From NCBI RefSeq assembly GCF_036507355.1, contig NZ_AP027877.1: a DNA stretch of 64,000 bases. One strand, given 5' to 3'. The notes under the pieces are model-generated. The model was given only the letters and a program-made list of their open reading frames with translations. It was not told the DNA's origin and ran no database searches. Each line of letters starts with the position of its first letter. Positions within the stretch are counted from its first letter, which is position 1. The position numbers were made by a program, and so were the translations under genes. This stretch comes from Escherichia coli. Its GTDB lineage: Bacteria; Pseudomonadota; Gammaproteobacteria; Enterobacterales; Enterobacteriaceae. Shown one piece after another: positions 23,377 through 28,525 of the stretch.

Positions 23377-24086
23377 AAATTGAATTAACGGTGAATGGGC
23401 TGAACGTGCAAGCGCAGTACCATGATGAAGAGATAGAACGCGTGCATAAACCGTTGCTGCGTATGCTGGCGGCCTTACAGACGGTAAATCCGCAGCGCCG
23501 AACCGTGGTTTTTCTTTGCGCTCCGCCGGGGACGGGTAAATCTACCCTAACCACCTTCTGGGAATATCTCGCGCAACAAGACCCGGAGCTGCCCGCTATT
23601 CAGACGCTCCCGATGGATGGTTTTCACCATTACAATAGCTGGCTGGATGCGCATCAATTGCGCCCCTTCAAAGGCGCACCAGAGACATTTGACGTTGCGA
23701 AACTGGCGGAAAATCTGCGCCAGGTCGTGGAAGGGGATTGTACGTGGCCGCAGTACGATCGACAAAAGCATGATCCTGTTGAAGATGCGTTGCACGTTAC
23801 CGCACCACTCGTCATCGTCGAAGGAAACTGGTTGTTGCTGGACGACGAGAAGTGGTGCCAGCTTGCGCAATTTTGTGATTTCTCGATCTTTATCAATGCG
23901 CCAGCTACTGCGTTGCGGGAACGACTGGTGGGGCGCAAGCTGGCGGGAGGGTTATCGCTGGCAGACGCAGAAGCTTTTTATGACCGTACCGACGGGCCGA
24001 ATGTTCGCCGGGTGCTGGAAGAGAGTCTGCCTGCTAATTTGACTTTAATGATGACCGCTACGGGTGAATATCGTCTGGTTGATTAA
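23373..24086 (+). CDS. yggC: P-loop kinase-like protein YggC
   Basis: 237-aa ORF MKIELTVNGLNVQAQYHDEEIERVHKPLLRMLAALQTVNPQRRTVVFLCAPPGTGKSTL... with Walker A; 3' end overlapped convergently by the following ATPase gene. Confidence 0.85.
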   Translation: MKIELTVNGLNVQAQYHDEEIERVHKPLLRMLAALQTVNPQRRTVVFLCAPPGTGKSTLTTFWEYLAQQDPELPAIQTLPMDGFHHYNSWLDAHQLRPFKGAPETFDVAKLAENLRQVVEGDCTWPQYDRQKHDPVEDALHVTAPLVIVEGNWLLLDDEKWCQLAQFCDFSIFINAPATALRERLVGRKLAGGLSLADAEAFYDRTDGPNVRRVLEESLPANLTLMMTATGEYRLVD

Positions 24087-24735
24087 CGTTCCTGATTAGA
24101 CCATCTTCCAGTCGCACCACACGAGAGAAATGACGCCGGGTAAATGCGGCGTCATGACTGATTGCTACGACGCTCGTGCCTCGCTGGCGGCACTTCTCCA
24201 GCCAGCTTTCAAACACGCTCAACCAATTTTCGTCAAAATCCCGACTCGGCTCGTCCAGCAGCAATAGTGGCGGAGAGAGTGCTTCCAGGCAGGCGACGGC
24301 GACCATCCGTCGCTGCGCACTATGCAGATCCAACGGATGCGCGCTGGCAGTGTCTGCTAACTGACAACATTGCAGGGCAGCATGGGTACGTTGAGTGATT
24401 TCATCCGCCGGGCATTTTTGCAGTTTCAAACCAAATGCGATCTCGTCGGCGACGGTGCTATGAAAAAGCTGGTTTTCCGCTTCCTGAAACAGTACGCCAA
24501 TCTTTGCCGCGCGCTGGCGGTTTTTCAGGTTTTTCATCGCCTGTTGTTGCAGCATAACCGTACCGGCTGTGGGCGTAAGAAGACCTGCCATTACTCGTAA
24601 CAGCGTCGATTTCCCTGCGCCATTGTCGCCGGTCAGCGCCAACCATTCACCTTGTTTGAGTTGCAGAGAAATGTCGCAAAGACAATCCGTTGCCGCGCCA
24701 GGCCAGCGATAAGATATCTGATTTAACGTTAACAT
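24058..24735 (-). CDS. ECF/CbiO-type ABC transporter ATPase, second subunit, degenerate signature motif
   Basis: ORF 24058-24768; likely start MLTLNQISYRW at 24735; Walker A GDNGAGKST, Walker B LLLLDEP, H-loop SHD, signature LSGGQ replaced by LHSAQ. Confidence 0.75.
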   Translation of the reverse strand: MLTLNQISYRWPGAATDCLCDISLQLKQGEWLALTGDNGAGKSTLLRVMAGLLTPTAGTVMLQQQAMKNLKNRQRAAKIGVLFQEAENQLFHSTVADEIAFGLKLQKCPADEITQRTHAALQCCQLADTASAHPLDLHSAQRRMVAVACLEALSPPLLLLDEPSRDFDENWLSVFESWLEKCRQRGTSVVAISHDAAFTRRHFSRVVRLEDGLIRNVNQPDDIHP

Positions 24736-25412
24736 AGTGGCTGGAGTGCTCCGTTTTGCAATTGCCACGCTTGCTGGCAGTAGTTCAGGAAAGGTGTGCG
24801 ATGACGTTCAAAAAGAATAATCAGCGAACCACGTTCAAACGCCCAGTGTTGTAAGCGCTGCAACAGCATTTCGCTGGCCTGCGGCGTCAGGCGGCTAAAG
24901 GCTTCATCAAGAATTAATAGCTTTGGCTGCATCGCGATGGCGCAGGCGATGACCACGCGCTGTGTCTCTCCACCGGAGAGTGTTGCCGGGTGACGATGGC
25001 GCAACGGCTGGCACTCGGTCAGAGTCAGGGCGGCATCAATCCGCGCCATAATCTCTGCTTCAGCAAGACACAGATTTTCTGGCCCAAAGGCAACTTCTTC
25101 TTCCACGCTAAAGGTACAGCCGGAGAGCTGCAAATAAGGCGATTGCTGGACGAGCTGGATGGTGGCGGATTGTTCATTAAGCGGGAGATGCCCAATGGGC
25201 GTACCGAGGAGCGTCCCCGTGCCTGTTATCTCTCCTGGCAGAAAGTCCGGATACCAGCCCGCCATCAGCTGTGCCAGCGTACTTTTGCCACTGCCGTTGT
25301 CACCAAAGATGGCGACCATCCCCGGTTTGACATAGTGAAAGTCATAACAGAACGGAGGATGCGTTGAGTGTGTCGGGCAATAACGGAACTGTTCTAACGT
25401 AACCATATCCAC
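24729..25412 (-). CDS. ECF/CbiO-type ABC transporter ATPase, first subunit
   Basis: 227-aa ORF MDMVTLEQFRYC...; Walker A GDNGSGKST, signature LSGGETQRV, Walker B LLILDEA; overlaps the next ATPase gene by 7 nt. Confidence 0.78.
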   Translation of the reverse strand: MDMVTLEQFRYCPTHSTHPPFCYDFHYVKPGMVAIFGDNGSGKSTLAQLMAGWYPDFLPGEITGTGTLLGTPIGHLPLNEQSATIQLVQQSPYLQLSGCTFSVEEEVAFGPENLCLAEAEIMARIDAALTLTECQPLRHRHPATLSGGETQRVVIACAIAMQPKLLILDEAFSRLTPQASEMLLQRLQHWAFERGSLIILFERHRTPFLNYCQQAWQLQNGALQPLC

Positions 25413-26101
25413 GCTCCGAATTCTGTCAGCATCAGCAAGATCATGGTGTAACGCGCTACGCGTTGTAGGGTGCTATCGGCTGGTGCCCACAACGTTGTTC
25501 GTCGGTTGTGGATCCGAAATGCCCGCATATCCAGCGCCGCACCACGGACAGCAAGATCGTTTAGCGCATTGTGTGTTAGCGGAATAATTAACGCGGACAT
25601 CGCACGTAAACGCTGATACCAGCCCTCATCCAGCGGCACGCCGCGGGCACGCTGCGCTTCATGAATAATCGCTAATTGCCGTTTTAACTGCTCAACGACC
25701 AATAACGGCCCGGCAAACAGATAAGCGACGCCTGGCGGCAGGCGAGAAGCAAACAGAGTGCGGATAAAACATTGCACGGGGACGTACTGCATCCACAACT
25801 GTGAGGTTGAAACAATCGCCAGAATCCGCAACCAGAGCGTAATAGCATGCGTCCAACGCTCCGGCGAACGCGGCGTGCCGCTTAGCCATTCTGTTAGCCA
25901 GCCACCGTGTACCAGCCACAGCCCGGCTCCCAGCGAGAACATCAGCCAGGCGACATATTTTGCCCGCCGCCGCGTGGCCTTTAGCGCAATAAGGCAAAAA
26001 AAGGTCGCCGCGCTATAGATCGGCAAAATGGTCTGCGCGGGCAGGATAAGCGTGGTGCAGGCCGCCAATGCCCATAGTGTTAATGAGGTAAATGGATGCA
26101 T
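25394..26101 (-). CDS. ECF transporter transmembrane T component (CbiQ/EcfT-like)
   Basis: 235-aa polytopic ORF MHPFTSLTLWALAACTTLILPAQ... with Arg-rich ...EAQRARGVPL... segment typical of EcfT; its ATG directly abuts the stop of the upstream gene. Confidence 0.7.
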   Translation of the reverse strand: MHPFTSLTLWALAACTTLILPAQTILPIYSAATFFCLIALKATRRRAKYVAWLMFSLGAGLWLVHGGWLTEWLSGTPRSPERWTHAITLWLRILAIVSTSQLWMQYVPVQCFIRTLFASRLPPGVAYLFAGPLLVVEQLKRQLAIIHEAQRARGVPLDEGWYQRLRAMSALIIPLTHNALNDLAVRGAALDMRAFRIHNRRTTLWAPADSTLQRVARYTMILLMLTEFGAWIWLR

Positions 26102-26680
26102 TTAGCGCACGGCAGCCATTGCCGGAAAATGGCGCGTGGTGCGAATCGGCAGCTGGCGCAGTAAAAGCCAGACAATCACCGCTGTAAGAGTTTTATCGAC
26201 CAGGTTCGCGCCTATCACCGTAATCGCCACCGACTCCACCAGGTTTTGCCCCATCGAGTGCATCCAGGCAACGAACAAATCGGCTCCGCTACCGGTGACA
26301 CCGCCGAACAGCGCAGTACGCAGCGGTACAGCGACGACCGTTACCGCAAGCGTAATAATCACGCCGCTGACAACGACTTTTGGTAGGGTGCGAAACCAAC
26401 CCGCTCGCGCCAGCCAACCGGCGACCAGGCCGATGACCATCGCGACGGGTGCAAATGCGGCGGCGATCGGGTCGGTCAGCAATCCCCAGAGTAAATTGGT
26501 CAGTAAGCCGGTCAGCATTCCGATCACCGGACCAAGCAGTACCGCGCTAATAAGTGTGCCGATGGAGTCGAGAAATATAGGTAATTTGACCATGCTGGCC
26601 AGTTGCCCGCCGATCATATTGATGGCGATAGATATAACGATCAACACCAGTGCCTGACTGGAAAAGTGGCTACGCGCCAT
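26102..26680 (-). CDS. ECF transporter substrate-capture S component (predicted)
   Basis: ORF 26102-26779; likely start MARSHFSSQALVLIVISIAINMIGGQLASMVKLPIFLDSIGTLISAVLLGP... at 26680; about 6 TM helices; resembles ThiW/YkoE-type S components; substrate unknown. Confidence 0.6.
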   Translation of the reverse strand: MARSHFSSQALVLIVISIAINMIGGQLASMVKLPIFLDSIGTLISAVLLGPVIGMLTGLLTNLLWGLLTDPIAAAFAPVAMVIGLVAGWLARAGWFRTLPKVVVSGVIITLAVTVVAVPLRTALFGGVTGSGADLFVAWMHSMGQNLVESVAITVIGANLVDKTLTAVIVWLLLRQLPIRTTRHFPAMAAVR

Positions 26681-26702
26681 AAGAAAACCTCTCTGAAAGT
26701 AG

Positions 26703-27134
26703 TTATTTAACGGGGGAAATATGCAACTCGTCGTAACCAGAAAGCGCGCAAGGTTGGCGGCTAAACGCCAGTTCCTCAAAGCTACCGATCACCAGTTCAA
26801 GCGTGGTCCGCACGGTACAGCCGGGCATCATATGACCGCCAAGCATCGTGCCGTGTGGATCGGAAACGCAGAGATGAAGATGCTCACCACTCTGTTCCAA
26901 CGTGCCGTTTAGTGAGATCACTTCGAATGTACCGTTCAGGAGCGTGGTGCCTTCTTGCCCGGCATAGCGCAAGGCGATGTCAGTCAGGCTACCGGTACAG
27001 CCTGCAATCCAGGCGGCATGAAGTTGCTGCTGCTGTGCAAAAGCGTGTAGCTGGGAAAAAACTTCCTGCCCGGGGAGGAGGCGCAGTGCGTAAAAGCGTG
27101 CGGAGGAAGAATATGGGTAGGGCAATGTCATCAT
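26703..27134 (-). CDS. DUF296 / PPC-domain protein (143 aa), first gene of the ECF operon
   Basis: ORF MMTLPYPYSSSARFYALRLLPGQEVFSQLHAF...GEHLHLCVSDPHGTMLGGHMMPGCTVRTTLELVIGSF... fits the PPC/DUF296 pattern. Confidence 0.65.
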   Translation of the reverse strand: MMTLPYPYSSSARFYALRLLPGQEVFSQLHAFAQQQQLHAAWIAGCTGSLTDIALRYAGQEGTTLLNGTFEVISLNGTLEQSGEHLHLCVSDPHGTMLGGHMMPGCTVRTTLELVIGSFEELAFSRQPCALSGYDELHISPVK

Positions 27135-27262
27135 TGGAGTACTCCGAAACTCGGACGTATTGCGGATAATATCGACGCTGCATCAGTCATATTCTGATAT
27201 AAGTCAGGGTTTGTGACGGCACAACGAAAAGATTTTGCTACGCTTATTCGTGATTCTGCAAA

Positions 27263-27278
27263 GTGGAATAAATTCCAC
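27263..27278. promoter_or_regulatory. inverted repeat GTGGAAT-AA-ATTCCAC in the divergent ECF-operon / epd intergenic region (possible operator)
   Basis: 7-bp arms with 2-bp spacer; a second ATTCCAC half-site lies at about 27349-27355; binding factor unknown. Confidence 0.25.
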
Positions 27279-27505
27279 AGGGGCGGGGCTGAAAACGTGA
27301 CGTAAGTCAGATAATTGTTTTCTTTGACTGGACAATCATTCCTTTTATTCCACGTTTCGCTTATCCTAGCTGAAGCGTTTCAGTCGATTAAATGTTCGAC
27401 AATTAACCAATCAGTCGCAGTTTGCGACAGGTAAGGTTTCCCCGGACGATTTGCTGGATTACTCTGTCTGGCAAATTTGCTCAGGGAAAACCTTGCAGGA
27501 GATCT

Positions 27506-28525
27506 ATGACCGTACGCGTAGCGATAAATGGCTTCGGTCGCATCGGGCGTAATGTGGTTCGTGCTTTGTATGAATCCGGACGCCGGGCGGAAATTACCGT
27601 GGTGGCAATCAACGAACTGGCGGATGCTGCGGGCATGGCGCATTTGTTGAAATATGACACCAGCCATGGCCGTTTTGCATGGGAAGTACGACAGGAACGC
27701 GATCAACTTTTTGTTGGTGATGACGCCATCCGCGTATTGCATGAACGTTCACTGCAATCGCTCCCCTGGCGTGAACTTGGCGTTGATGTAGTCCTCGACT
27801 GCACCGGCGTATATGGCTCCCGCGAGCATGGCGAAGCGCATATTGCCGCCGGGGCCAAAAAAGTGCTCTTTTCACATCCTGGCAGTAACGATCTCGACGC
27901 GACCGTTGTTTACGGCGTCAATCAGGATCAACTTCGTGCGGAACACCGCATCGTTTCTAACGCTTCCTGTACCACGAATTGCATAATTCCCGTCATCAAA
28001 TTGTTAGATGATGCGTACGGTATTGAGTCCGGCACTGTGACCACAATTCACTCCGCCATGCACGATCAACAGGTTATTGATGCATACCATCCTGACCTGC
28101 GTCGCACCCGGGCAGCCAGCCAGTCGATCATTCCGGTCGATACTAAACTGGCCGCCGGTATCACACGATTTTTTCCGCAATTTAACGATCGCTTTGAAGC
28201 GATTGCGGTACGTGTGCCAACCATAAATGTGACGGCAATCGATTTAAGCGTGACGGTGAAGAAACCTGTAAAAGCCAATGAAGTCAACCTGTTGCTGCAA
28301 AAAGCAGCACAAGGTGCATTTCATGGTATAGTTGACTATACGGAATTGCCGTTGGTCTCTGTAGATTTTAACCACGATCCGCACAGTGCCATTGTCGATG
28401 GCACCCAAACCCGGGTCAGTGGCGCACACCTGATCAAAACGTTGGTCTGGTGCGATAACGAATGGGGCTTTGCTAACCGAATGCTCGACACGACGTTAGC
28501 TATGGCTACTGTTGCTTTCAGGTAA
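27506..28525 (+). CDS. epd: D-erythrose-4-phosphate dehydrogenase
   Basis: ORF 27422-28525; start at ATG 27506 gives the 339-aa product [55 protein letters not shown]... Confidence 0.95.

Follow-up and report, generated by a model that had tools for sequence, protein, structure and literature searches.

A perfect inverted repeat upstream of epd in Escherichia coli as a candidate lineage form of an ancestral epd-pgk-fbaA control element

A perfect inverted repeat, GTGGAAT-AA-ATTCCAC, is located upstream of epd in the analysed window, i.e., the whole stretch of 64,000 nucleotides of Escherichia coli DNA. The palindrome may be the Escherichia-lineage form of an ancestral upstream control element of epd-pgk-fbaA and not a part of the neighbouring transporter cluster; we give this reading a probability of about 0.5. 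The constrained unit is a single left-arm box, and the dyad symmetry is not conserved. The box is probably a protein-binding site for a host factor, because it is otherwise hard to explain why a short sequence with saturated flanks stays invariant and keeps its distance from CRP. The repeat would be at most a modest regulatory site rather than a switch of the transporter genes beside it. Antagonism of CRP and Cra at the epd-pgk-fbaA promoter, worked out in K-12, is a textbook example, and the invariant boxes found there go beyond what CRP or Cra explains. If a factor binds these boxes, the control of a core glycolytic operon has a new input that differs between E. coli lineages.

The repeat lies in a spacer of 371 bp. 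On one side is a minus-strand operon of five genes, encoding a PPC/DUF296 protein (ATG at 27134), an ECF S component, a T component, and two ATPases. The other side, on the opposite strand, holds epd-pgk-fbaA (epd ATG at 27506), so the earlier note placed the repeat correctly between two divergent transcription units. The transporter gene cluster is referred to below as the islet, the term of that note. The features of the repeat and of the first two operon genes are as follows.

26703-27134, minus strand: PPC/DUF296 protein gene, first gene of the five-gene operon
26102-26680, minus strand: ECF S component gene, with the CD3073 family as best model but below cutoff (134.9 bits, cutoff 180)
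27263-27278, no strand: perfect 7-2-7 inverted repeat GTGGAAT-AA-ATTCCAC, read from the window sequence
27264-27272, minus strand: conserved box TTTATTCCA (TGGAATAAA on the plus strand), constrained core of the repeat
27273-27278, no strand: distal right arm TTCCAC, weakly constrained or unconstrained
27344-27352, plus strand: second copy of TTTATTCCA, in the core promoter of epd (-30 to -22), invariant across genera

The window sequence confirmed the inverted repeat, and its full pattern has one perfect match only. The extra ATTCCAC described at about 70 bp from it was also found, at 27347-27353, with a gap of 69 bp. A perfect 7-bp palindrome alone is slight evidence. Perfect inverted repeats with arms of 7 bp or more, separated by 0-4 bp, number 41 in the window, compared with 23 +/- 5 in simulation, and 11% of simulated 371-bp spacers of like size and composition contained at least one. 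The ATTCCAC 7-mer was not enriched in the window (12 found vs 8.4 expected). The 9-mer TTTATTCCA has only two copies in the 64 kb (expected 0.49), both in the PPC-epd spacer and in inverted orientation. The link between the repeat and the distant half-site is therefore sturdier than the palindrome itself. No other copy of the dyad was detected in the approximately 0.75 Mb searched, i.e., the window and 93 loci. The site is covered by no annotated feature or Rfam family, the dyad matched no known motif, and a literature search for its sequence returned no relevant paper.

The transcription start of epd was published at 132 nt 5' of the ATG, together with the promoter sequence (PMC2759082). The promoter elements were assigned in the window as follows.

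27374, plus strand: epd transcription start, mapped from PMC2759082
27362-27367, plus strand: epd -10 hexamer TATCCT (-12 to -7), mapped from PMC2759082
27369-27385, plus strand: Cra (FruR) box GCTGAAGCGTTTCAGTC, overlapping the start, assigned from sequence and invariant across genera
27296-27311, plus strand: CRP box cGTGAcgtaagTCAgA, centred at -70.5 (class I position), read from sequence

These CRP, Cra, and -10 assignments agree with ChIP-exo data, in which epd is activated by CRP in the class I manner and Cra lies over both the -10 and the start site (PMC5888115). The CRP box scores 9/10 against the consensus in most genera. A sigma-70 promoter consensus scan of 27000-27600 made no promoter call. 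The repeat centre, 27270.5, is at -103.5 from the epd start, and the CRP-box centre is 33.0 bp further downstream. The third half-site, ATTCCAC, occupies -27 to -21, within the second TTTATTCCA copy in the core-promoter spacer of epd. It had been taken as part of an islet operator, and its place inside the mapped epd core promoter speaks against that.

Two variations were observed in this promoter. Escherichia has TATCCT as the -10 hexamer of epd, and most genera have TATTCT. Islet-type and K-12-type haplotypes of E. coli differ at numerous positions across 27279-27337, among them the CRP box (CGTGA vs TGTGA) and TTGACT vs TCGGCT at 27324-27329, and agree fully downstream. Since the haplotypes differ in the CRP box among other positions, the CRP dependence of epd may vary by E. 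coli lineage.

The conservation of the two arms was compared in about 45 Enterobacteriaceae genomes. The footprint alignment comprised 34 spacers, 29 of them from outside Escherichia, and identity was counted against the window. In these 29 genomes the left arm at 27264-27271 (TGGAATAA) showed 86-100% identity. The right-arm positions 27273-27278 showed 66/52/38/45/10/66%, and the bases past the arm were approximately random. Of 34 islet-bearing spacers, 31 have GGAATAA 35.5 or 36.5 bp upstream of the CRP-box centre, as does Salmonella. Thus the two half-sites expected of a dimeric operator were not both conserved in the orthologous promoters; the left arm alone was kept. Complete complementarity of the arms (7/7) was limited to E. 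coli and Kluyvera georgiana among islet-bearing genomes. E. whittamii followed with 6/7, two Klebsiella species, one Silvania, and Salmonella had 5/7, and the remaining genomes had 1-4/7. The repeat as such is therefore mostly missing from other copies of the gene cluster, with complementarity of 1-5/7 in 27 of 29 scorable non-Escherichia genomes. An identical 30-mer occurs in 3019 E. coli genomes. Within Escherichia, the palindrome varies at 3 of its 16 positions and is no less variable than its flanks. The variants are TGAAAT in E. albertii, the outermost base in E. whittamii, and the right arm ATTCCG in E. coli strain A4, a possum isolate.

The box shares its hexamer with other sites of the same promoter. 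All TTATTC hexamers were mapped by their distance from the CRP centre, and the following copies were distinguished.

27244-27249, plus strand: TTATTC within CGCTTATTCG (27243-27252), -57 from the CRP centre, conserved in islet-bearing genera
-35 from the CRP centre, minus strand: TTATTC of the left arm of the palindrome, conserved in islet-bearing genera
+44 from the CRP centre, plus strand: TTATTC of the core-promoter spacer, conserved in islet-bearing genera
+60 from the CRP centre, plus strand: TTATTC of the -10 region (CGCTTATTCT), present in most genera, TATCCT in Escherichia

Three TTATTC boxes in 151 bp are the sole such cluster in the window (P ~2.5e-4, simulation). In most of the islet-less genera that have the box, direct copies are placed at -51, -20, and +44 from the CRP centre. 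The 9-mer CGCTTATTC is common to the box at 27243-27251 and, in most genera, the -10 region of epd. Because the boxes resemble the -10 region of the promoter itself (CGCTTATTCT), they could be promoter-like duplications, not factor sites.

From these observations we infer that the control element would work through one box of 8-9 bp, TGGAATAA(A), or TTTATTCCA on the opposite strand. The box would be recognised by a host DNA-binding protein that modulates CRP-dependent transcription of epd. It would act with its spacing to the class I CRP site kept constant (the dyad centre is 33 bp, approximately three helical turns, upstream of that site) and as a member of the TTATTC cluster that includes the invariant copy in the core-promoter spacer. 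In E. coli, a second, inverted copy makes up a dyad that would suit a dimer, but most genera dispense with this second arm. It is awkward for a single fixed architecture that the orientation and distance of the box differ between two groups of genera.

The symmetry itself allows two other readings. It is doubtful, but worth weighing, that the repeat is a genuine two-fold symmetric operator, i.e., that a dimeric IclR-type HTH regulator binds TGGAAT-N2-ATTCCA and needs both arms in E. coli. The dyad is a perfect 7-2-7 in E. coli, full dyads occur in separate lineages (Kluyvera georgiana; Franconibacter and Cronobacter), and two species of the Klebsiella oxytoca group have a 5+5 core, GGAAT-AA-ATTCC. 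The cross-genus consensus of the right arm remains ATTCC, and the dyad centre is 33 or 22 bp from the CRP centre, i.e., on the same helical face. However, the right arm is gone in Citrobacter, Silvania, Leclercia, Atlantibacter, and others, the arm sequences are polymorphic in Escherichia, and a second copy of the dyad is missing from the 0.75 Mb searched. Complementarity was no higher than in shifted registers. The four outer pairs scored 1.14/4 at the true register and 0.4-1.4 at shifted registers, in a control that leaves the phylogeny intact, and no excess was found.

It is unlikely that the palindrome was made by chance or mutation. The box would then be functional and the right arm neutral sequence that complements it by accident. 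Quasi-palindrome correction by template switching is a possible origin of such an arm. The abundance of 7-bp perfect repeats given above fits this reading, as does a right arm that is unconstrained across genera and polymorphic in Escherichia and whose inner ATT extends an A/T run. Perfect outer matches (CCA with TGG) nevertheless recur in at least three lineages with saturated flanking bases. This recurrence exceeds approximately 1/64 per lineage, unless template switching or shared ancestry accounts for it.

The nearest known arms are those of the IclR family. The E. coli IclR operator is TGGAAATNATTTCCA and the AllR operator is KTTGGAAWAWTWTTCCAAC (PMC8222616). The repeat, TGGAATAAATTCCA, has the same TGGAA/TTCCA half-sites as both, an A/T-rich centre, and two-fold symmetry (PMC8222616, Table 1), which supports a symmetric operator. 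Some members of the family use an extra external half-site, as the extra TTATTC boxes might be. The spacing is different: TGGAA and TTCCA are 4 bp apart here, whereas IclR and AllR have a gap of 5 bp, and this counts against the symmetric operator as well. The gap is 4 bp in every dyad-bearing species and 6 bp in the degenerate K-12 form. A further difference is that only one arm of the epd-upstream repeat is conserved. The examined neighbourhood showed no gene of the IclR family, and no reports were found of epd as a target of IclR or AllR, or of IclR-family binding at the repeat. A tentative possibility is that an unrecognised regulator, perhaps of the IclR family with 4-bp arm spacing, binds a TTATTCC array at epd-pgk-fbaA across Enterobacteriaceae. 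Just as tentatively, the array would extend around the CRP site and inside the core promoter. If true, a central operon of glycolysis and vitamin B6 would answer to a third regulator besides CRP and Cra, and K-12, with its degenerate dyad, would have concealed this input.

The association of the ancestral control element with epd was examined at loci where epd and the ECF genes are separated. At 41 ECF operons distant from epd, including those of Buttiauxella, Budvicia, Proteus, Providencia, Morganella, Aeromonas, and Hafnia, the box was found at the equivalent upstream position in none (0/41). The few isolated GGAATAA/TTATTCC matches among them were inside the gene or at approximately -245/-285. 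The element thus does not go wherever the operon goes. In genomes without the operon at epd, the box was present. K-12-type E. coli, which has no ECF genes, keeps cTGGAATAAAgc at the same distance from CRP. The islet-less Intestinirhabdus has AGAATAA approximately 36 bp from the CRP centre. Six genera that are islet-less at epd (Buttiauxella, Cedecea, Dryocola, Siccibacter, Cronobacter, and Franconibacter) have TTATTCC at a distance of 19.5 bp from the CRP centre, on the strand of epd. Cronobacter has the dyad GTGGAAT-TT-ATTCCAA (6/7), and two Franconibacter species have ATGGAAT-TT-ATTCCAT (a perfect 7/7 in the islet-less form). Both are centred 22.0 bp from the CRP centre, i.e., exactly 11 bp, or approximately one helical turn, closer to CRP than that of E. 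coli. Absence from the 41 distant ECF operons and presence at epd without the operon tie the element to epd.

The earlier note had proposed an operator for a regulator that the islet does not encode, and this was weighed as an operator of the PPC-ECF operon. The site is in the shared divergent spacer, 129 bp 5' of the PPC start codon. It would, however, be at about -110 from the predicted ECF start, the box does not accompany the operon elsewhere, and the operon carries a travelling control module of its own. This reading is very improbable as a whole and largely refuted by the comparison. Judged by the refuting conditions that the note itself named, it fails, the repeat being absent from most other cluster copies and part of the ancestral epd promoter. 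The suggested comparison with the yggC-epd region of K-12 pointed the same way, with the conserved half present there despite the missing ECF genes. What can be kept is that the putative binder would not come from the transporter genes.

The control module of the ECF operon consists of the following features.

27194-27207, minus-strand operon: palindrome CTGAyTTATATCAG with an FNR-like core TGAT-N4-ATCA (27195-27206), near-invariant
27171 to 27166, minus strand: TAnnnT -10 hexamer TATTAT, predicted ECF promoter
27141-27158, minus strand: invariant leader ACGTCCGAGyyTCGGAGT with a 5-bp hairpin, the 3' arm of which holds the PPC Shine-Dalgarno GGAG

The operator-like element of this operon is likely the palindrome at 27194-27207 and not the repeat at 27263-27278. 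Its centre precedes that of the TAnnnT hexamer by exactly 32.0 bp in 32 of 34 species. The module of palindrome, hexamer, and leader hairpin travels with the operon in Buttiauxella and one Enterobacter species (ENT03). Because the 32.0-bp geometry is that of a CRP/FNR-family activator at -41.5, a class II promoter is predicted, with the start of the ECF operon near 27158 and a leader of approximately 25 nt. Class II sites of the FNR/CRP family are the nearest likeness for this palindrome, and the E. coli form has 3 mismatches to TTGAT-N4-ATCAA. The repeat differs from such sites (TTGAT-N4-ATCAA, -41.5) in sequence and lacks a promoter-proximal position. Far better conserved than the repeat, the 27194-27207 palindrome predicts regulation of ECF by an FNR-type protein. 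The leader hairpin shows one compensatory change, A-U to G-C, in Superficieibacter, and its loop length varies in Buttiauxella. Because of this change and the variation in the loop, an RNA element is favoured for 27141-27158; the fold energy of the hairpin alone was not significant (z -1.3).

The PPC gene is annotated as 'PPC domain-containing DNA-binding protein' and is an ortholog of PDB 2HX0/2NMU ('putative DNA-binding protein'). A 2018 thesis, as cited in PMC11481890, deals with the ortholog in Salmonella, STM3071, and its possible role in regulating the transport of cobalt. A sigma-54 ChIP site was reported inside the neighbouring Salmonella gene STM3072 (PMC3844500), which is apparently the ortholog of the ECF S component gene at 26102-26680.

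The islet itself was found to be old. From reference genomes fetched with relatives of the PPC protein, 33 genomes, also Salmonella, showed PPC-ECF divergent to epd with a spacer of approximately 370 bp. The genera include Escherichia, Citrobacter, Klebsiella, Kluyvera, Leclercia, Silvania, Atlantibacter, Superficieibacter, Trabulsiella, and Pseudescherichia. The islet, 24058-27134, is syntenic with epd in about 35 species and is missing from approximately 2,100 of 5,426 complete E. coli genomes. Since the arrangement extends across many genera of Enterobacteriaceae, the transporter genes are ancestral to the family and were lost in K-12-type strains; the word islet does not describe them well, and the repeat is not a feature of them. 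The epd-proximal part of the spacer was found in 5425 of 5426 complete E. coli genomes and the palindrome-bearing part in only 3329. K-12-type genomes align only from about 27285 on, with yggC directly upstream of epd, and the palindrome is degenerate in them. The loss was a replacement, i.e., the 3' end of yggC and about 100 bp were exchanged for DNA without similarity to the islet. The K-12 yggC-epd spacer showed no similarity to islet DNA besides the box.

The K-12-type spacer has further repeats. An extra TTTATTCCAG is placed right after the yggC stop codon (locus L002, 4938-5000), and it forms a 10-bp inverted repeat with CTGGAATAAA, 31 bp apart. ATTATTCCTG was found upstream of the CRP box in Buttiauxella, Mangrovibacter, and Pantoea, at a similar distance in the first two. 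Because ATTATTCCTG occurs in these genera, the K-12 spacer looks like a mosaic of two arrangements.

A role of the repeat as an RNA hairpin, i.e., a leader or terminator, or a wholly functionless repeat, is also very remote in our estimate. A 32-nt test segment folds into a 6-bp stem with a tetraloop at -10.5 kcal/mol (z -3.4), but this fold follows trivially from the palindrome, and other genomes do not keep the hairpin. Unlike an intrinsic terminator, it has an A/T-rich stem, then AGGGGCGGGG, and no U-run. A terminator scan of 27000-27600 found nothing at the repeat and one unrelated terminator-like site inside epd. An Rfam scan of 26900-27700 gave only two chance-level matches (E ~4), away from the repeat. 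The known transcripts miss the site, the mapped epd start being 96 bp downstream. Absence of any function is hard to reconcile with the invariance of GGAATAA amid saturated flanks.

Other known systems were compared with the repeat. CytR-CRP complexes at deoP2 are an example of auxiliary regulator sites beside CRP. The epd promoter is similar in that a conserved element of protein size lies whole helical turns (22 or 33 bp) upstream of CRP in a class I promoter. The motif, however, is unlike the CytR octamer GTTGCATT, epd has a single CRP site, and cooperativity would be conjectural. As a CRP site itself (TGTGA-N6-TCACA), the repeat reached 6-7/10 in its best register by manual alignment, and its GTG...CAC spacing is 2 bp too long. 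An FlhDC SELEX peak, i.e., in vitro binding, was reported in the K-12 spacer (PMC9962212); the box, compared manually, does not agree with the FlhDC consensus AAYGSSNNAAATAGCG. A literature search for Lrp at epd found nothing. The DnaA box, ARG box, mar box, NarL 7-2-7, CytR octamer, sigma-54 and sigma-E promoters, and an extended -10 reading of TGGAATAAA were rejected for mismatches at critical positions when their consensuses were compared by eye.

GalR/GalS operators such as GTGTAAACGATTCCAC belong to the LacI family, which requires a central CG step. The repeat resembles them in its palindromic form, its length of 16 bp, the GTG...CAC at its ends, and the TTCCAC of one arm. Its centre is AA, with no CG, and its arms are not conserved across genera, which sets it apart from this family. 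Elsewhere in the window, GTGTAATCGATTACAC at 5063-5078 beside galP is a perfect LacI-family palindrome with a central CG, presumably a GalR/GalS operator. In some genomes, an IS4-like transposase is annotated under 4700-5500 of the window.
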